50,782 nucleotides of DNA from NCBI GenBank assembly GCA_038318455.1, contig JBBQCF010000002.1:1-50782 (forward strand), in the 5' to 3' direction. Source of the DNA: Candidatus Moraniibacteriota bacterium. Its GTDB lineage: Bacteria > Patescibacteriota > Minisyncoccia > Moranbacterales > GWC2-37-73. Shown one piece after another: positions 6,929 through 41,474 of the stretch (position 1 is the first letter of the stretch; every line of letters begins with the position of its first letter). Position numbers and translations under genes: made by a program. Below the pieces are notes generated by a model. It had not been told where the DNA came from. It worked only from the letters and a program-made list of their open reading frames with translations, and ran no database searches.

Positions 6929-7318
6929 ATGACAAAAAGAACTATTGTTATCAGGAAGAAATCCTGGCTACAAAAAACAAATAAAAAAAGAAATATCTTG
7001 CCGATAACAGCGCTGAATTCAAGTACTGCCGGTTTTATTAACCCTGTTTTCGTGGTTCTTGTAGCTGCAGCTTGCTCGGGATTGTTTTATGTCTATTCGG
7101 TTAACCAGACCGCTGTTAAAGGCATCGCAATTAGAAATGCTGAAAATGAAGTTTTATTGGAACAAAAAAATAATGAATCATTGAAAATAAAGGAGGCAGA
7201 ATTAAAATCCTTGTATCATATTGAAGATGTATCAAAACAACTTAATATGATTAATGCTGTTAATGTTAAATACGTGGAAGAGATTCCAGCTGTCGCTTAT
7301 AATGCTGCAACGCGCTAG
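6929..7318 (+). CDS. ftsL: FtsL-like cell division protein
   Basis: 129 aa, one TM helix followed by a coiled-coil-like region. Lies between rsmH and ftsI. Confidence 0.6.
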   Translation: MTKRTIVIRKKSWLQKTNKKRNILPITALNSSTAGFINPVFVVLVAAACSGLFYVYSVNQTAVKGIAIRNAENEVLLEQKNNESLKIKEAELKSLYHIEDVSKQLNMINAVNVKYVEEIPAVAYNAATR

Positions 7319-7356: not shown

Positions 7357-9237
7357 ATGAATAAGGCAAAAATTATAAGGCGCAACGATCCAAAGCAAAA
7401 AACTTCAGAAAAAAACTGGAGAATTAATATTTTGGTTTTTTTTATTTTCTTTATTGCAATAGTTGTTGTGACAAAACTTTATATTCTTCAGGTTGCTAGG
7501 CATGGCGTTTATGCAGCACTTGCGGAGCAACAGCATGGACATACAACTCAACTTGTAGCAAAGCGAGGAGAAATATTTTTGCAAGATGAAAACCAACCAT
7601 ATCCAGTTGCAGTGAATAAGGAAATGAAAATGGTGTATGCTGTTCAGCGCGAAATGAAAGACATGGATAGTTCTATCAAGGCATTAGCATCTATCTTGGG
7701 TCTGGATGAAAAATTTCTTCAAGAGAAACTAGATGATCCTACGGATATGTTTGAAATTTTAAAAAATAAACTTTCCGATGATGAGGTTAAAAAAATAAGA
7801 GAAGCGAAAATAGCGGGAATATATTTGGTGGGGGAAAATTTTCGTTATTATCCGGCAGCTGAACTTGCAGCGCAAACAATTGGCTTTGTTGGATCAGACG
7901 GCAAAGAGCAAGTCGGTAGATATGGACTCGAGTCATCATGGCAGGATAAATTAAAAGGCATTAGTGGTATGCAAATTCAGGAAGGTGATTCTCGCGGAAG
8001 GTGGATACCTGTTTCAGATAGAAATGTTGAGGCTGCACAGGATGGACAGAATTTGATTTTAACAATAAATCACACTGTTCAATTTGAAGTCGAAAAAATA
8101 CTTAAACAGACAATGGAGAAATTTAGTGCAGATAGCGCTACAGCCATTGTTGTTGATCCAAAAACTGGTAAGATTTTAGCCTTGGCAAATCAACCAAGTT
8201 TTAATCCTAATGATTTTTCCTCAACTGACATTTCACTTTTTATGAATCCAGCGGTAAGTTCGCCATATGAATCAGGTAGTGTTTTCAAGGCCTTCACTGA
8301 AGCTATTGGTCTTGATGATGGAAAAATAAGTCCTAACACAACTTATTCTGACACAGGCACAGTTGTTGAGGCTGGATATTCAATTCATAATTCCGATCTC
8401 AAGGCTAATGGCACACAAACAATGACGCAGGTTTTGGAAAAATCTCTGAATACTGGAGTTATATACATTGAAAAACTTGTTGGTAATAAAAATTTCGCTG
8501 ATTATATTAGTAGATTTGGTTTTGGCAAAAAAACTGGAATTGATTTGCCTGGTGAAGTTCCTGGTAACATCAGAAATCTGGAAAACACAAATAGAACAAT
8601 AAACTTTTTCACAGCTTCTTTTGGGCAAGGTATCTCAATGACGCCAATTCAATTGGCAATGGCATATGGCGCATTGGCAAATAAGGGCGTTTTGATGAAG
8701 CCACAAATTGTTGATGAAATTAATTATACCGATGGCCATAGCGAAAAAATACAACCTGAAGAAGTGCGACAAGTCATTACCGAGAGTAGCTCTAAACAAG
8801 TATCTGAAATGCTTAGGGCTGTTGTGCTTAATGGGCACGGAAAACAAGCTGATGTGCCAGGATATTTGGTTGGGGGTAAGACAGGAACAGCGCAAGTTGC
8901 AAAAACTGGTTCAAAGGGATATGAAGAAGGTGTGAACATCGGTTCATTCGCAGGCTATGCTCCAACTAATGACCCTAAATTTGTGATTGTTGTTAAAATT
9001 GTGAATCCAAAAGGAGTCGAATGGGCAGAAACATCAGCAGCGCCTTCTTTTGGTAAAATAATGAAATTTTTATTGGAATATTATAAAGTTGAGCCGACTG
9101 AAGATCCGAAAATAAGTCCAACGTATAAAATGTATCAAGCTGAAAATACTTCCGTAGCTTCTGAAGTAACTCCTGCTGCTGTTGAAAATGCTAAATTGGA
9201 TACTAAGACTAAAGATGACTCCAAGAAAAAGAAATAA
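7357..9237 (+). CDS. ftsI: Penicillin-binding protein, class B transpeptidase (FtsI-type)
   Basis: N-terminal TM, PBP dimerisation region, SxxK (SVFK) and KTGTA motifs. Lies in dcw context. Confidence 0.9.
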   Translation: MNKAKIIRRNDPKQKTSEKNWRINILVFFIFFIAIVVVTKLYILQVARHGVYAALAEQQHGHTTQLVAKRGEIFLQDENQPYPVAVNKEMKMVYAVQREMKDMDSSIKALASILGLDEKFLQEKLDDPTDMFEILKNKLSDDEVKKIREAKIAGIYLVGENFRYYPAAELAAQTIGFVGSDGKEQVGRYGLESSWQDKLKGISGMQIQEGDSRGRWIPVSDRNVEAAQDGQNLILTINHTVQFEVEKILKQTMEKFSADSATAIVVDPKTGKILALANQPSFNPNDFSSTDISLFMNPAVSSPYESGSVFKAFTEAIGLDDGKISPNTTYSDTGTVVEAGYSIHNSDLKANGTQTMTQVLEKSLNTGVIYIEKLVGNKNFADYISRFGFGKKTGIDLPGEVPGNIRNLENTNRTINFFTASFGQGISMTPIQLAMAYGALANKGVLMKPQIVDEINYTDGHSEKIQPEEVRQVITESSSKQVSEMLRAVVLNGHGKQADVPGYLVGGKTGTAQVAKTGSKGYEEGVNIGSFAGYAPTNDPKFVIVVKIVNPKGVEWAETSAAPSFGKIMKFLLEYYKVEPTEDPKISPTYKMYQAENTSVASEVTPAAVENAKLDTKTKDDSKKKK

Positions 9238-17161: not shown

Positions 17162-18295
17162 ATGAACAAAAGCAAAATGTCCGCCCAAGGCGGATTCGCC
17201 TTGGGCGGAAAAAAAATATTATTGATATTGTCATTTATATTATTGACGATGCCATTTGTTTCTCATGCTGAAACAAAAAAAACTGCAATTTTATTTTATG
17301 CAGATTGGTGCCCTCATTGTCATAAGGTAGATGAATATTTCAAACAGCAAGGATTTTATGAAAAATATGATATTCAGAAGTTAAATTTTGATGATCCTGT
17401 TAATAAAGAATTATTGGGAAAAATTTTTACAAGCAAGAGTGATATTAAAAATCTTGGTATCCCTGCTATTGTTATTGACGATACCCTTATTGCTGGCGAT
17501 CAGCCAATTATCAGTGGGTTTGCTAGCGCTATGGAAAATTCCAAGGGAATTGCGCAGGATTTTATTGATGGTTTTACTGCCAAAAGTATTGCTGAAAAAA
17601 ACATTACAAATAATGCAGTTAATATCCCAATCTGGCTCTTATTGGGAGCAGCTTTTGCCGACGCTGCTAATCCTTGTGCCTTGGCAGTGCTTATCTTATT
17701 ACTAGCAACCGTTATTTCAGCTAAAGGCAGGACGCGCGCTTTGCTTTCGGGCCTTATGTTTTCTTTGGCAATTTTTCTTTCCTATCTTTTAATGGGACTT
17801 AGTGTTTACAAGGCAATTGGTGCTTTTGGAGTTTCAAAATATCTTTCATTGGGGGTTGGAATCTTAGCTATCATTATCGCAATAGCTAATTTTAAAGATG
17901 TTTTTTGGTATGGAAAATTCTTTGTCATGGAAGTTCCTCTTTCTTGGCGTCCAAAAATGCAAGAAATTATCCGTCGTGCCACGAGTCCATGGAGTGCGTT
18001 TGGGATTGGTTTTTTGGTGAGTCTATTTTTGGTGCCATGTGCTAGCGGACCATATGTTGTTATTCTGGGAAAATTGGCAGAAAAAACCGAAACAGCCAGG
18101 ACTTTTACTTTGCTGATGCTATATAATTTGGTTTTTGTTTCTCCAATGATCTTGATAACACTAGGAATGTATTTTTTTAATGCCAAATTGAGCAAACTGG
18201 AAAAGATGAGACGAGACAACTTGAGAACACTTCATGCGATCACGGGAGTTATAATGTTGGCAGTTGGAGTGTATTTGATATATACTAAATTGTAG
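17162..18295 (+). CDS. Fusion protein: exported thioredoxin-fold domain (CPHC) plus CcdA/DsbD-type transmembrane thiol-disulfide transporter
   Basis: Signal-like ILLILSFILLTMPFVSHA, ILFYADWCPHCHKV, then a 6-TM region with ANPCALAVL and VPCASGPY Cys motifs. The ATG at 17162 is preferred over the TTG at 17153. Confidence 0.8.
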   Translation: MNKSKMSAQGGFALGGKKILLILSFILLTMPFVSHAETKKTAILFYADWCPHCHKVDEYFKQQGFYEKYDIQKLNFDDPVNKELLGKIFTSKSDIKNLGIPAIVIDDTLIAGDQPIISGFASAMENSKGIAQDFIDGFTAKSIAEKNITNNAVNIPIWLLLGAAFADAANPCALAVLILLLATVISAKGRTRALLSGLMFSLAIFLSYLLMGLSVYKAIGAFGVSKYLSLGVGILAIIIAIANFKDVFWYGKFFVMEVPLSWRPKMQEIIRRATSPWSAFGIGFLVSLFLVPCASGPYVVILGKLAEKTETARTFTLLMLYNLVFVSPMILITLGMYFFNAKLSKLEKMRRDNLRTLHAITGVIMLAVGVYLIYTKL

Positions 18296-28039: not shown

Positions 28040-28087
28040 TTGACAATTTGCCCAAAAATGTATATACTTTGACGATTATGGTATAAT
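28040..28087 (+). promoter_or_regulatory. Candidate promoters of RNase P RNA
   Basis: First candidate: TTGACA (28040-28045), 17-nt spacer, TATACT (28063-28068). Second candidate: extended -10 TGgTATAAT (28079-28087). Confidence 0.5.
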
Positions 28088-28110
28088 ATAATATAGTTCT
28101 TTGAATTTAG

Positions 28111-28589
28111 AATTTATCAAAGTAATTAGGCAATCGCTGTTTTCGCAAGAAAATAGAGGAAAGTCCGGACGTTTCCCATGAAAGTGGGAGCATGGTAGCG
28201 GGTAACCCCCGTCAGAAGTGATTCTCGAGGTGCGAGCAGAGACGCCTGAACGTGAAAACAATCAGGCACCCTGATTTATTAGGGTGAATTTCTATGGCAA
28301 CATAGAAGGTGAAACGGCTAAATCCTTACCTGGACGCAAGACCGTGCTCCAGTGCGTGGCACTGGAAATTTCAAAAATCAAATTACAAATTCCAAACAAT
28401 TTTCAAATAGAAAATAAATCAAGAGTATTTCTTTGTTTGGTGCTTGTTTCTTGTGATTTGTATTTTCCAATGCTGTGCATTGGTAGAGTGTCGCTTGACT
28501 CCGACGGTAACGTCGGAGCTAGATAAATGATTGTCATCAATTTGAAAAAATTGACACAGAATCCGGCTTATAGATTACTTTGATAAATT
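28111..28589 (+). ncRNA. rnpB: RNase P RNA (bacterial type A-like) with a large AT-rich insertion
   Basis: P4 signature AGAGGAAAGTCCGGAC (28155-28170) and ACAGAATCCGGCTTAT (28556-28571). P1 pairs 28111-28126 with 28574-28589. GGTGAAACGG and AGATAAATGATTGTC elements are also present. Confidence 0.9.
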
Positions 28590-28633
28590 GTAAATTCAAA
28601 GATTAAAATTTAAATTTATATTTACATAGATAA

Positions 28634-30067
28634 ATGAAAAAAAGAAGCGAATTATTTTTCAGTGCAATTCAGGTTCCAATGGACGGGGCAATGATATTAT
28701 TGGCAGCGTTAAGTGCTTTTTCGATTAGAAATATTCCAGAAATTTTAGCCTTAAAGCCTAAACTATATAATTTTCCACTGGATAGTTATTTGCATGCTGT
28801 TTTTCTTATAACTCCTCTTGCGATTATTGTATATGCTATAGAGGGCCTTTATAATATTAAGGTTACTAGAAAATTTTGGCAGGAAGCAGTGAGTGTTTTT
28901 TTGGCAACCTCTGTTGCGCTAGTTGTTATTATTGTTACGATTTTTCTTAAACGAGAATGGTTTTCATCTCGTTTTATAATTCTGGCTGGTTGGGGACTTA
29001 CTGTGATGTATGTGACAATTGGTAGATATATTTTGCAAAAAATTCAAAAACATTTCTTGCAATCAAGAGGTATGGGTGTGCACAGACTTCTTTTGATTGG
29101 CAGAAATCGAAAAATGGATTTAATTTTAAAGTTAATAAAAAAAGATAAATCATTGGGCTACAAGATTGTTGGACGCATAGAAACAGCAGCTATACGACTC
29201 GTGCGCGATATTAAAGAATCAAAAGGTGTTGATGAGATCATTGTTTGCGATTCATCACTCACTGACAATGAACAAGAAAAATTGATAGATTATTGTGCAA
29301 TTAATAATATTTCATATAAATTCATTCCAACAACATTGCAAACTGCAAAATTTGAAAATGGTATTTTTAATGGTGAGCCTATTATTGAAATTAAACATAC
29401 TCCACTTGAAGGTTGGGGTAAAATCTTAAAGCGCACTTTTGACATAATAAGCTCTAGTGTTTTTATCGTAATTCTTTCTCCATTAATGGCGGTGGTTGCA
29501 TTACTGATTAAAGTAGAGTCTTTTTTTGAAAATTCCAAAGATGGCCCAATCGTGTATAAAAATGAACGCATAGGAAGTGACGGAAAGAAATTTAATGTAT
29601 ATAAATTTCGTTATATGAAATGGGAATTTTGCACAAACCCCAATACGTCAGAAGGTAGAAAGGCCCTGGAATATGAAAAAGAATTGATTAAAAAATTAAG
29701 CATCAAAAAGGGACCACTTTATAAAATTAAAAATGATCCTCGCAAGACAAGAATTGGTGCAATCATTGAAAGGCTTTCTATTGATGAGTTGCCACAATTT
29801 TTCAATGTTTTCATGGGGGATATGAGTTTAGTTGGTCCTCGTCCTCATCAAGAAAGAGAAGTGGCAAAATATAGTGAATATCACAGGCGATTATTGACCA
29901 TAAAACCTGGAGTAACAGGTATGGCGCAAGTTTCCGGACGCTCTGATCTTGAATTTGAAGACGAATATAAATTGGATGTTTTTTATATTGAAAATTGGTC
30001 ACTTTGGCAGGATATTCAAATTTGTCTTAAAACAGCTTTGGTTTTATTCAAGAGAAGGAAGAATTAG
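28634..30067 (+). CDS. Polyprenyl-phosphate glycosyl-1-phosphate transferase (WbaP/EpsB-type sugar transferase)
   Basis: Multi-TM N-terminus, then the bacterial sugar transferase domain KRTFDIISSSVFIVILSPL..., PQFFNVFMGDMSLVGPRP. Confidence 0.88.
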   Translation: MKKRSELFFSAIQVPMDGAMILLAALSAFSIRNIPEILALKPKLYNFPLDSYLHAVFLITPLAIIVYAIEGLYNIKVTRKFWQEAVSVFLATSVALVVIIVTIFLKREWFSSRFIILAGWGLTVMYVTIGRYILQKIQKHFLQSRGMGVHRLLLIGRNRKMDLILKLIKKDKSLGYKIVGRIETAAIRLVRDIKESKGVDEIIVCDSSLTDNEQEKLIDYCAINNISYKFIPTTLQTAKFENGIFNGEPIIEIKHTPLEGWGKILKRTFDIISSSVFIVILSPLMAVVALLIKVESFFENSKDGPIVYKNERIGSDGKKFNVYKFRYMKWEFCTNPNTSEGRKALEYEKELIKKLSIKKGPLYKIKNDPRKTRIGAIIERLSIDELPQFFNVFMGDMSLVGPRPHQEREVAKYSEYHRRLLTIKPGVTGMAQVSGRSDLEFEDEYKLDVFYIENWSLWQDIQICLKTALVLFKRRKN

Positions 30068-32354: not shown

Positions 32355-33026
32355 ATGAAAAGATTTGATATAGTTACAATTTTCCCAAATATTTTTGACA
32401 GCTATTTCGGCGAGTCTATCATTAAACGTGCTAAGGAAAAAGAAATAGTCCAAATTACAGCGCATAATTTGCGTGACTTTTCTACCAATAAGCACAATAA
32501 TGTTGATGACACACCATACGGTGGTGGAGCTGGCATGGTGATGCAAGTGGAGCCAATTTATTTGGCAGTGAAAGATATTAAAAAAGAAAATTTAAAAACC
32601 AGAACTATTTTATTTTCTGCTAAAGGAAAAAGATATAAACAAGAGGATGCCAAAAGATTAACTGAATATGATCAACTGATTTTTATTTGTGGTCGCTACG
32701 AGGGTGTGGATGAACGTGTGGCGGAAAATGTTTGCGATGAAGAAATTTCTATTGGAGATTTTGTGATGACTGGTGGAGAGATCGCTGCAATGGTCGTGAT
32801 TGATAGTGTCGCGAGATTATTGCCTGGAGTGCTTGGTAATGACCAGAGTGCAATCGTCGAATCACATAGTGAAGAAGGATATTTGGAATTTCCGCAGTAT
32901 AGCAAGCCGGAAAAATTCCTAGAGTGGGAAGTTCCCAGTGTCCTGCTAAGTGGTAATCATGCCGAGATTGAGAATTGGAGAAAAAATCAATCAAAATCCA
33001 AAAAGAAAATTACAAGCACCAAATAA
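32355..33026 (+). CDS. trmD: tRNA (guanine37-N1)-methyltransferase
   Basis: FDIVTIFPNIF, DDTPYGGGAGMVM, CGRYEGVDERV, GGEIAAMVVIDSV motifs. Confidence 0.93.
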   Translation: MKRFDIVTIFPNIFDSYFGESIIKRAKEKEIVQITAHNLRDFSTNKHNNVDDTPYGGGAGMVMQVEPIYLAVKDIKKENLKTRTILFSAKGKRYKQEDAKRLTEYDQLIFICGRYEGVDERVAENVCDEEISIGDFVMTGGEIAAMVVIDSVARLLPGVLGNDQSAIVESHSEEGYLEFPQYSKPEKFLEWEVPSVLLSGNHAEIENWRKNQSKSKKKITSTK

Positions 33027-33118
33027 AATCCAATAATCAAATTTTAAATATTCAAACCGTTTGTGAGTTACCTTTTTTGCAATTTGAGATTTGTTTGGAA
33101 TTTTTTTCTTGATTATTG
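33012..33118 (+). repeat. AT-rich long imperfect hairpin, family 2
   Basis: CAATAATCAA (33031-33040) pairs with TTGATTATTG (33109-33118). ACAAGCACCAAA (33012-33023) is the reverse complement of TTTGGTGCTTGT, found at 28436-28447 and 40052-40063. Confidence 0.45.
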
Positions 33119-39952: not shown

Positions 39953-40088
39953 AAATAACAAATTTAAAATTGCAAATTACAAATAAATTACAAATACTAA
40001 AATTTAAAATTTCAAAAAATTTGATATTTGATTGTTGTGATTTGTTTATTGTTTGGTGCTTGTCGTTTGTATTTTGTAATTTATATTT
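39953..40088 (+). repeat. AT-rich long imperfect hairpin, family 2
   Basis: The A/C-rich left half has repeated AAATTACAAAT and the G/T-rich right half has ATTTGTAATTT. It contains TTGTTTGGTGCTTGT (40049-40063), identical to 28433-28447 inside rnpB. Confidence 0.5.
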
Positions 40089-41327: not shown

Positions 41328-41474
41328 ATATAAATAAATTACAAATGACAAATTGCAAATACCAAGCAAATTTCAAAAAACAAAAAAAACTTTTCAAATT
41401 GTTTGCATATTTGAATTTTGTAGATTGTAATTTGTTTGGAATTTATTTATTGTAATTTGTTTATTTACTTTAAA
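41328..41474 (+). repeat. AT-rich long imperfect hairpin, family 2
   Basis: Left half is AAATTACAAATGACAAATTGCAAATACC and right half is GTAATTTGTTTGGAATTTATTTATTGTAATTTG. It fills the gap between the two permease genes. Confidence 0.45.

Follow-up and report, generated by a model that had tools for sequence, protein, structure and literature searches.

RNase P RNA is a universal and essential ribozyme, and its natural structural variation defines how much the catalytic core tolerates. In heterocyst-forming cyanobacteria, helix P12 of this RNA reportedly carries heptamers of the short tandemly repeated repetitive (STRR) type, which Vioque is said to have described in 1997 (NAR 25:3471). The intervening sequences of 23S rRNA are located at helices 9, 25 and 45, and helix 9 is a classical site of those that are excised by RNase III. 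This excision takes place without re-ligation, and the short ORF-less insertions at known intervening-sequence (IVS) sites in the 23S rRNA of CPR bacteria were proposed to be RNase III-type or IVS-like (available part of PMC11270868). The type A RNase P RNAs of the CPR were described as scoring poorly with RF00010 and as having lengthened helices, one of them called an 'extended P15 helix' (Lui, Nielsen and Arkin 2021, available text of PMC8172020). REP/BIME and MITE-like repeats, finally, are short non-coding hairpins that are scattered intergenically; many of them are transcribed, and some are located within other features (see PMC3184786).

We analysed a stretch of 50,782 nt (the window) from a Moranbacteria-like (Parcubacteria, CPR) genome of 0.92 Mb (labelled G000 among the genomes compared), in which rnpB contains a palindromic cassette. 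The cassette resembles the cyanobacterial STRR in that an apparently dispersed repeat with a 7-nt unit lies inside rnpB, lengthens a peripheral helix and varies among related strains. Unlike the STRR, it is located in P16/17 of the catalytic domain and not in P12, it is palindromic throughout and ends in a GC hairpin on either side, its host belongs to the CPR and it also occurs in 23S rRNA. With the 23S intervening sequences it shares that an AT-rich extended stem-loop replaces the native tip of a peripheral hairpin, that its occurrence is sporadic among close relatives, that an identical design is present in helix 9 of relatives and that RNase III is present; in contrast, the host RNA is here RNase P RNA, and excision would here be hypothetical. 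We know of no described intervening sequence that has heptamer periodicity and a flanking pair of GC hairpins whose triloops are complementary. Like the RNAs of PMC8172020, the RNA studied here has an extended helix and lacks the UGG/CCA-binding motif; the available text of that paper draws no link from the extensions to dispersed repeats, to presence or absence within a genus or to 23S insertions, and a similar extension may be found in its figures S5-S7. The likeness to REP/BIME and MITE-like repeats lies in the short, non-coding, intergenically scattered hairpins, whereas the arms are here degenerate heptamer arrays and the flanks are inverted. An insertion of the MITE-like type with a direct target-site duplication was rejected, because the flanking 17-mers are inverted copies.

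Position and architecture of the cassette

The gene matched RF00010 over the full model (positions 1-367) with a score of 137.3 bits (E 4e-42, cmscan), the cut-off being 100, and a genome search returned no other match to this model. Both conserved strands of P4 (GAGGAAAGUCCGG and ACAGAAUCCGGCUUA) and the order of the helices from P1 to P18 align to it as well. The two promoter-like sites directly upstream (Table 1) agree with the consensus at 11 and 10 of 12 positions, respectively. No GGU motif, which would pair with the 3'-CCA of tRNA, is visible in L15 of this rnpB, since TAGAGT stands on its 3' side (TTGGGT or TTTGT in congeners). This does not take the RNA out of the type A family; the UGG/CCA-binding motif is absent in most CPR RNase P RNAs (23 of 35, available text of PMC8172020). 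Within the family, the cut-off of RF00010 was exceeded in 23 of 33 genomes, and the present case explains the poor scores of these rnpB genes. A scan of the window at Rfam gathering thresholds found RNase P RNA and one tRNA only, so no group I or group II intron was matched by a covariance model.

Table 1. Features of the rnpB locus and related hairpin elements in the window
Feature	Coordinates	Strand	Remarks
Two promoter-like sites directly 5' of rnpB	28040..28097	+	TTGACA-17-TATACT and TTGACG-17-TATAGT; consensus matches only
rnpB, bacterial type A RNase P RNA including the cassette	28118..28586	+	469 nt; cmscan RF00010
P15, 5' strand	28340..28343	+	Pairs with 28489-28492; cmscan alignment and minimum-energy fold
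Hairpin h1	28349..28365	+	7-bp stem CCAGTGC/GCACTGG, triloop GTG; left base of cassette; reverse-complementary to h2 including the loops
AT-rich middle of cassette	28366..28466	+	101 nt; left arm A/C-rich, right arm G/T-rich; 7-nt periodicity; interrupted rod
Hairpin h2	28467..28483	+	7-bp stem CCAATGC/GCATTGG, triloop TGT; right base of cassette
P15, 3' strand	28489..28492	+	cmscan alignment; preceded by 3' side of L15
AT-rich hairpin element	32993..33118	.	Matches left arm on both strands; 15-mer as reverse complement with 1 mismatch
Intergenic AT-rich hairpin element	39985..40082	.	Aligns to the whole 101-nt segment, 67% identity; identical 15-mer
Intergenic AT-rich hairpin element	41368..41465	.	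Aligns to the whole 101-nt segment, 65% identity

An earlier note on this DNA had described two GC-rich hairpins with an AT-rich segment of 101 nt between them, and both hairpins and the segment were confirmed (Table 1). Their assignment to the specificity domain (P12-P14) was not: the alignment to RF00010 places the whole segment, as an insert, between P5'/P7' and P18, in the P15-P16/17 arm, which is part of the catalytic domain. Within the P15-17 arm of the type A RNA, the cassette sits at the tip of the P16/17 stem-loop. The segment is indeed AT-rich (21.8% GC, compared to 46.5% in the remainder of rnpB and 35.7% in the genome), although 'almost pure A/T', as it had been called, is an overstatement. 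The two hairpins are likewise present but are not independent helices of the host RNA. Instead, both make up the base of a large cassette that is palindromic as a whole: 28349-28483 is a single imperfect palindrome of about 135 nt and consists of h1, an AT-rich rod and h2. The sequence of h2 is of the same type as the single hairpin found in congeners without the cassette.

That the cassette is an artefact of assembly, for which the origin of the genome (a metagenome bin of 63 contigs) might speak, is very improbable, as is the related idea of a chance low-complexity likeness that has nothing to do with the intergenic repeats. One DNA contig of run X1, possibly the sample behind the assembly of the window, covers 28297-28650 and thereby crosses the cassette with 0 differences to the window, and the same design was found at the same site in ten other genomes of the family and in G039, a member of another family.

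The minimum-energy fold of the cassette is one rod (-43.4 kcal/mol, z -4.4), in which CCAAACA (28392-28398) pairs with TGTTTGG (28434-28440). The AT-rich middle folds at -18.0 kcal/mol (z -3.0) on the sense strand and at -15.3 kcal/mol on the antisense strand; in this genome it consists of steps of 3-4 bp and one step of 7 bp, which are separated by 3x3 internal loops. Rods are formed by all 11 inserts of the family (z -3.0 to -8.1). The insert of G045 still forms one with a middle of 49% GC, and the design was therefore kept when the sequence was replaced. The loops of h1 and h2 are complementary at 17 of 18 positions over six distinct loop pairs, which was reached by one of 5000 permutations, and in the 12 cassettes compared the two triloops are identical at none of the three positions (nine cassettes) or at one of them (three cassettes). 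In 8 of 10 distinct combinations, pair 4 of the inner h1:h2 helix of the rod form is a C.A mismatch. Compensatory changes are also present inside h1 and inside h2 in the family comparison, where the hairpins counted had been picked by having 7 of 7 local pairs, so that a figure of 70/70 paired arises by construction and only changes of pair type are informative. As predicted folds, the rod and the pair of local hairpins each find support in these comparisons.

The arms of the middle have a lag-7 signal (z 2.9 in the left and 2.4 in the right arm), which is present in 10 of the 11 family inserts (z 1.4 to 5.0 over their 20 arms). Heptamer-array loci number 30 in the genome, against 0-8 for other lags. 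The arrays are degenerate, as TRF on 28300-28520 reported just one unit, of 11 nt in 2.1 copies.

Relation to dispersed AT-rich hairpins

A BLAST search with the real 101-nt segment gave 47 matches of at least 30 bits in the genome, whereas 100 arm-wise dinucleotide shuffles gave 8.9 on average and 22 at most, so that 47 was attained by none of them. By crude ORF calls, 27 of these matches fall between genes, and intergenic DNA makes up about 14% of the genome. BLAST statistics are inflated for AT-rich queries, which speaks for a chance likeness, and so does the result of nhmmer, which corrects for composition and retained just one other locus, a full-length match at C6:22408-22516 (E 3.3e-4). 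Five single-sequence seeds found few loci as well (2, 0, 2, 4 and 3 matches). Near-full-length dispersed matches, down to E 2e-17, were obtained with the insert of G005, which has a different sequence.

The 15-mer at 28433-28447 that had been singled out earlier is identical at 40049-40063, and its reverse complement lies at 33012-33026 with one mismatch and an exact 12-nt core. It has 3 matches where 0.23 are expected, a number attained by 0 of 100 shuffles. In the whole genome there are 3 exact copies, 6 with at most one mismatch and 21 with at most two, and all three exact copies sit in hairpin elements. It is therefore not a common low-complexity sequence; had it been one, this would, by the earlier note's own criterion, have spoken against its view. 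These comparisons argue that the AT-rich part is related to dispersed intergenic hairpins beyond an effect of composition and that it probably belongs to the AT-rich hairpin repeats with which many intergenic spacers in the lineage are filled.

In a folding census of windows with at most 24% GC (1932 regions), diluted by AT-rich coding sequence, there was a modest excess over shuffles: 128 regions against 39 at an energy per nucleotide of -0.2 or lower, 24 against 1 at -0.25 or lower, and 96 against 56 for single hairpins with 30 bp or more. Screening by the composition of the arms did not discriminate (651 loci against 595 in control order) and missed the rnpB element itself. The most frequent 11-mers of the genome are mainly runs of A/T.

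Distribution in the family and the parallel in 23S rRNA

Of the 32 rnpB genes of the family, 11 contain the cassette with its three parts, h1, a middle that forms a hairpin, and h2 (G000, G004, G005, G013, G014, G017, G024, G042, G043, G045 and G047). Both states occur within each of five genera. At the same site the congeners G001, G002, G003, G006 and G007 have a single hairpin, with RNAs of 325-362 nt, and in a relative of about 93% identity (runs X3 and X5) 57 nt replace 28346-28518. As congeners do without it, the cassette is dispensable. On the rnpB core tree, which leaves out G041 and G042, 9 changes are needed, of which at least 5 are forced by the starred branches. The tree scores G028 as cassette-free; in its rnpB, however, a right arm and a hairpin resembling h2 come after a run of N, so it is probably a carrier and the count of 9 may be 8. 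The cassette is evolutionarily labile. A recent duplication of h2 was rejected as its origin, because the likeness of h1 to h1 between genera exceeds that of h1 to h2 within a genome. With these cassette-free congeners and the shuffle tests, the central idea of the earlier note holds, namely that an essential ribozyme carries either an expansion helix derived from repeats or an element that it removes or tolerates.

One might also see the cassette as a selected functional module of RNase P, for instance a docking site for a protein on the heptamer hairpins or a switch between rod and two hairpins that tunes activity. The design is conserved in at least six genera while the sequence of the middle turns over, covariation supports the rod and both local hairpins, and of 144 co-directional intergenic cases of the dispersed hairpins, 107 have the better fold on the transcribed strand. 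However, the cassette is absent in 21 of the 32 rnpB genes and in close congeners and is therefore not required, a mutation bias linked to transcription could also produce the strand bias, and no candidate binding protein was identified. We consider such a module improbable.

The tip of helix 9 of 23S rRNA is replaced by the same cassette design in 5 of 13 family members examined (G014, G018, G022, G023 and G045). In G000 itself the genome search found no rRNA genes, and for tmRNA there were sub-threshold matches only. RNase III is encoded in this genome (G000:C16:19289-19939; TIGR02191 with 239.5 bits against a cut-off of 166.25). These observations raise the possibility, which we take seriously but hold tentatively, that the cassette belongs to the intervening sequences of the 23S type and that its AU-rich rod would be cut by RNase III after transcription without rejoining of the ends. 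The mature RNase P RNA would then consist of two pieces, roughly 28118-28365 and 28467-28586, joined by P1, P2, P4, P15 and the GC-rich stub of h1:h2, or else h1 and h2 would each form a GC hairpin that caps the piece to which it belongs. A patchy presence among close relatives is typical of such elements, and in the spacer between tRNA-Arg and tRNA-His a related AT-rich hairpin is followed by a similar GC hairpin; this spacer has to be removed from the precursor. The RNase III-type origin proposed for the CPR insertions at IVS sites (available part of PMC11270868) points in the same direction. The rods of G005, G004 and G013 are, moreover, long and near-perfect duplexes with a strong sense bias (-35.6 against -11.5, -35.3 against -9.0 and -44.4 against -30.8 kcal/mol, sense and antisense, respectively), which fits selection for double-stranded RNA.

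Retention or excision of the cassette

The reading that we prefer, at about an even chance, is that the ribozyme tolerates the cassette as a retained expansion segment at the tip of P16/17. The cassette would be transcribed with rnpB and would fold by itself into a rod with a 17-bp h1:h2 duplex as its base, or alternatively into two local hairpins. The rod would project from a peripheral and solvent-exposed hairpin tip, and in this lineage the tip of P16/17 would be without a contact to P6. Recombination between h1 and h2 would repeatedly cause loss of the cassette and leave a 'solo' hairpin, as in the congeners.

Retention is favoured by the structure of the rod in this genome, which is AT-rich, poorly paired and heavily interrupted and is therefore a weak double-stranded RNA substrate and a doubtful target of RNase III. 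The heptamer repeats in P12 of cyanobacteria are retained in the RNA, which also counts against an intervening sequence. In addition, a literature search turned up no natural split bacterial RNase P RNA, and for the RNase P RNAs of the CPR, large extensions of helices were reported to belong to the RNA structure (available text of PMC8172020). Against retention count the parallel in helix 9 of 23S rRNA, the presence of an RNase III gene and the sense-biased duplex rods of the three relatives.

If RNase III does remove the rod, Moranbacteria with the cassette would use a two-piece RNase P RNA, and the same mobile cassette family would fragment 23S rRNA at helix 9, an outcome that we regard as possible and rather doubtful. 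As far as our literature searches show, it would be the first bacterial RNase P RNA found split in nature. The AT-rich hairpin family and the cassette design are met with at three types of site: the spacers between genes, a spacer of a tRNA operon, and peripheral helix tips in two stable RNAs, namely RNase P RNA and 23S rRNA. The elements are gained and lost between congeners. The association connects dispersed repeats, the intervening sequences and expansion segments of rRNA and the 'diverged' RNase P RNAs of the CPR, which are usually treated apart.

Position, architecture and fold of the rnpB insert

A single RNase P RNA gene was found in the window by the full bacterial type A model RF00010 (137.3 bits; gathering score 100), and rnpB is single-copy, as there is no second match in the 0.92-Mb, 63-contig genome (G000). 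The gene neighbours one encoding a PBP2-like protein, whose closest relatives in Candidatus Moranbacteria, Moraniibacteriota or the Parcubacteria group place the host among the CPR bacteria. The two 7-bp hairpins (h1 and h2), the 101-nt segment between them (21.8% GC, against 46.5% for the remainder of rnpB) and the 15-mer matches lie exactly where the earlier note had put them. As to its interpretation, the link between the segment and intergenic repeats withstood comparison with shuffled sequences (see below) but the placement in P12-P14 did not survive alignment: cmscan puts the segment after P5'/P7' and before P18, in the P15-P16/17 arm of the catalytic domain.

Location of the features in the window and of one related locus elsewhere in the genome
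Feature	Location	Strand	Remark
Promoter-like sites	28040-28097		two strong sites just upstream of rnpB, predicted
rnpB	28118-28586	+	RF00010 match
ORF	28284-28526		80 aa, GTG start, crosses rnpB and the cassette; most likely spurious
Hairpin h1	28349-28365		7-bp stem
Hairpin h2	28467-28483		7-bp stem
L15, 3' side	28484-28489		TAGAGT
AT-rich element	39985-40082		aligns with the entire 101-nt segment, 65-67% identity
AT-rich element	41368-41465		aligns with the entire 101-nt segment, 65-67% identity
Related locus	C6:22408-22516		contig C6; nhmmer, positions 6-95 of 101, E 3.3e-4

Given the L15 sequence in G000 (TTGGGT or CGGGGT in several relatives), the GGU motif, pairing partner of the tRNA 3'-CCA, seems to be absent from this rnpB.

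Since h1 is the reverse complement of h2, loops included, positions 28349-28483 can be read as one imperfect palindrome, a unit larger than the 101-nt segment, which we call the cassette. Among 12 cassettes (from 11 rnpB genes and one 23S rRNA gene) there are six distinct h1/h2 loop pairs (GTG/TGT, AAA/TTT, GGA/TCT, GTA/TAT, GTA/TGC and TTC/GTA), in which 17 of 18 positions are complementary if G-U pairs are counted, a score reached by 1 of 5000 permutations. At minimum energy the cassette is predicted to fold into one rod, which P15 closes (-43.4 kcal/mol, z -4.4; none of 200 shuffles as good); when the two local hairpins are imposed, the fold is less stable by about 3 kcal/mol. Between lineages, compensatory changes on both sides of a pair occur in h1 (pair 3 AT/GC, pair 4 GC/AT, pair 5 TA/CG) and in h2 (pair 3 AT/GC, pair 4 AT/TA, pair 5 TA/CG), of which the pair types alone are informative because the hairpins were selected for full local pairing. 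The rod form carries a C.A mismatch at pair 4 of the inner h1:h2 helix in 8 of 10 distinct combinations. Either fold is possible.

The left arm of the AT-rich middle is A/C-rich and the right arm G/T-rich, and both show a 7-nt periodicity in G000 (lag-7 z 2.9 and 2.4), a signal present in 10 of 11 inserts (z 1.4 to 5.0 over their 20 arms). In the predicted fold of the G000 middle, steps of 3-4 bp and one step of 7 bp alternate with 3x3 internal loops. Rod folds were obtained for all 11 middles (z -3.0 to -8.1); that of the relative G045 has 49% GC and no periodicity, yet folds as a rod. The nearest precedent is formed by the STRR heptamers reportedly described by Vioque in 1997 in helix P12 of the RNase P RNA of heterocyst-forming cyanobacteria.

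Relation to dispersed AT-rich hairpins

The AT-rich part of the cassette is related to AT-rich heptamer hairpins dispersed over the genome. BLAST of the 101-nt segment against the whole genome yielded 47, 13 and 6 matches at score thresholds of 30, 35 and 40 bits, where 100 arm-wise dinucleotide shuffles gave means of 8.9, 0.5 and 0.08, respectively, and none attained any of the real counts, so that the relation exceeds composition. By crude ORF calls, 27 of the 47 matches are intergenic (about 14% of the genome is intergenic). With the composition-corrected nhmmer search one other locus was kept (on C6), and the exact 15-mer occurs three times genome-wide, each time within such a hairpin. The insert of the congener G005, which differs from that of G000, has near-full-length dispersed matches, with 34 places at E <=0.01 in G005 itself, 55 in G004, 43 in G003, 12 in G000 and 20 in G013 (the self match is included, and some places were counted once per strand). 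Outside rnpB its best match is on contig C7 of G004 (E 2.3e-17, bases 8-131 of 131), followed by one on contig C45 of G000 (E 3.5e-17, covering 2-131). The latter, a 124-nt AT-rich heptamer hairpin 76% identical to the insert, fills together with a GC hairpin the tRNA-Arg/tRNA-His spacer of G000 (C45 about 6999-7137; locus L039 1501-1639); this 6-bp hairpin (loop GTA) follows it directly, lies 6 nt before tRNA-His and resembles the GC hairpins of the cassette.

No other short tandem period is as common in the genome as the heptamer, which forms arrays at 30 loci, whereas lags 5, 6 and 8-12 give 0-8. In 107 of 144 structured AT-rich intergenic regions between co-directional genes the transcribed strand folds better (p = 4e-9), which suggests that the dispersed hairpins have a role as RNA, or that RNA is at least the level at which they are shaped; the strand bias could instead stem from transcription-linked mutation bias.

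Left-arm-type A/C-rich heptamers were seen in G000 within an apparent LepA/EF4-like GTPase (C46 962-995, just before the TPGHVDF motif) and a glycosyltransferase-like ORF (C3 about 8455-8485), where they resemble repeat sequence inserted in frame. At 17180-17212 of the window and at C18 17673-17705, a pair of adjacent 6-bp GC hairpins, whose triloops (CAA/TTG) are reverse complements, forms a palindrome of ~30 nt, the twin-hairpin design of h1/h2 with no insert between.

Distribution among relatives and recurrence in 23S rRNA

The cassette is dispensable and caps a peripheral stem-loop of the ribozyme. We found rnpB in 32 of 33 family genomes and could read the P15-P18 arm in all 32, of which 11 carry the cassette (G000, G004 and G005 in genus g1, G013 in g6, G014, G042, G043 and G045 in g7, G017 in g10, G024 in g12 and G047 in g13), as does G039 of another family and probably G028, in which the left part of the site reads N. 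Both states occur inside five genera. On a tree of the rnpB core (319 columns, the cassette columns removed by the fill filter, G028 scored as absent, G041 and G042 left out) the trait requires nine changes, at least five of them forced by the starred branches, and its clustering does not exceed that of shuffled labels (161 of 500 gave a count as low). A selected functional role for the cassette is unlikely, being hard to reconcile with its absence from 21 of the 32 family members. In a relative ~93% identical in the flanks (metagenome runs X3 and X5, from another study), 57 nt with a single hairpin replace 28346-28518. The single hairpins of g1 congeners and of G020, G030 and G034 are of the h1/h2 sequence type and are, on our reading, footprints of h1-h2 recombination.

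For h1 and the first insert bases, likeness between genera exceeds that between h1 and h2 within a genome, and the arms of G000 have similar counterparts in G047 (left arm) and G014 (right arm, 91% identity over 35 nt); the cassette is thus homologous across genera and not freshly duplicated in each. An artefact or chance is very improbable, as it is contradicted by metagenome contigs at the locus, the shuffle test and this cross-genome hairpin comparison.

A 16-nt GC-rich palindrome is nested in the AT-rich rods of G014 and G017 (loci L034 and L020; TTCGCCAGCTGGCGAA) and, as TTCGCCAATTGGCGAA, in that of G042 (L058), three genomes of two genera in all, and a mini-hairpin CTGCCTACCGGCAGGCAGG is common to the inserts of G014 and G043, which suggests nested insertions. 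Within this taxonomic order, large inserts are also seen in further peripheral helices of RNase P RNA, and the genes range from 325 to 742 nt in length. The P3 loop holds 119 nt (G004, L032), P12 holds 70-220 nt (G030, L007; G039, L011; G022, L016; G027, L033) and P9 holds 78-97 nt (G022, G027), and there are inserts between P18 and the P4 3' strand (G039, G027).

The same design recurs in helix 9 of 23S rRNA, a classical site of intervening sequences excised by RNase III. In the 23S gene of G014 (L061 1501-5406; 3906 nt against a 2925-position model) helix 9 (L061 1632-1799) holds a 7-bp hairpin (loop GTA), then an AT-rich hairpin, ~130 nt long and alike in sequence type, and a second hairpin (loop TGC). 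Among 13 family members helix 9 bears a cassette in five (G014, G018, G022, G023 and G045), another extension in one (G044) and a plain hairpin in seven. The distribution differs between the host RNAs, with cassettes in 23S only (G018, G022, G023), in rnpB only (G017) or in both (G014, G045). The terminal hairpins have their core in common between the two RNAs, and likewise the start of the AT-rich part, an indication that they are part of the element and not of the host helix. In the G014 23S gene, a long AT-rich stretch at about positions 2200-2970 may be an intron with an ORF.

In the literature on RNase P RNA (CPR, repeats, STRR, fragmentation) and on Patescibacteria intergenic hairpins we found no palindromic cassette with twin complementary-loop hairpins (supplementary figures may show a similar extension), nor one common to RNase P RNA and 23S helix 9, related to dispersed heptamer hairpins or present and absent within a genus.

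Retention or excision of the cassette

The cassette would be transcribed together with rnpB, fold on itself and be directed away from the core, as the native hairpin, with its 7-bp stem and triloop, has no nucleotides to spare for a P6 contact. Its excision by RNase III, which is encoded in G000, would give a natural split, two-piece RNase P RNA; we consider this a serious rival, a real possibility if not a probable one, to which the same cassette design in 23S helix 9 lends weight, as do the rods of G005, G004 and G013, which are near-perfect and strongly biased to the sense strand. PMC11270868 reports short intervening-sequence-like insertions in CPR 23S genes and proposes that ORF-less ones at known intervening-sequence sites are of the RNase III type. 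The reading that we favour, with about even confidence, is that in G000 the cassette would be retained as an expansion segment of RNase P RNA, because its rod is poorly paired, its sense and antisense strands differ little in energy (-18.0 vs -15.3 kcal/mol) and extended helices have already been described in CPR RNase P RNAs, for which PMC8172020 mentions large extensions of helices, among them an 'extended P15 helix', and notes that the UGG motif is often lost.
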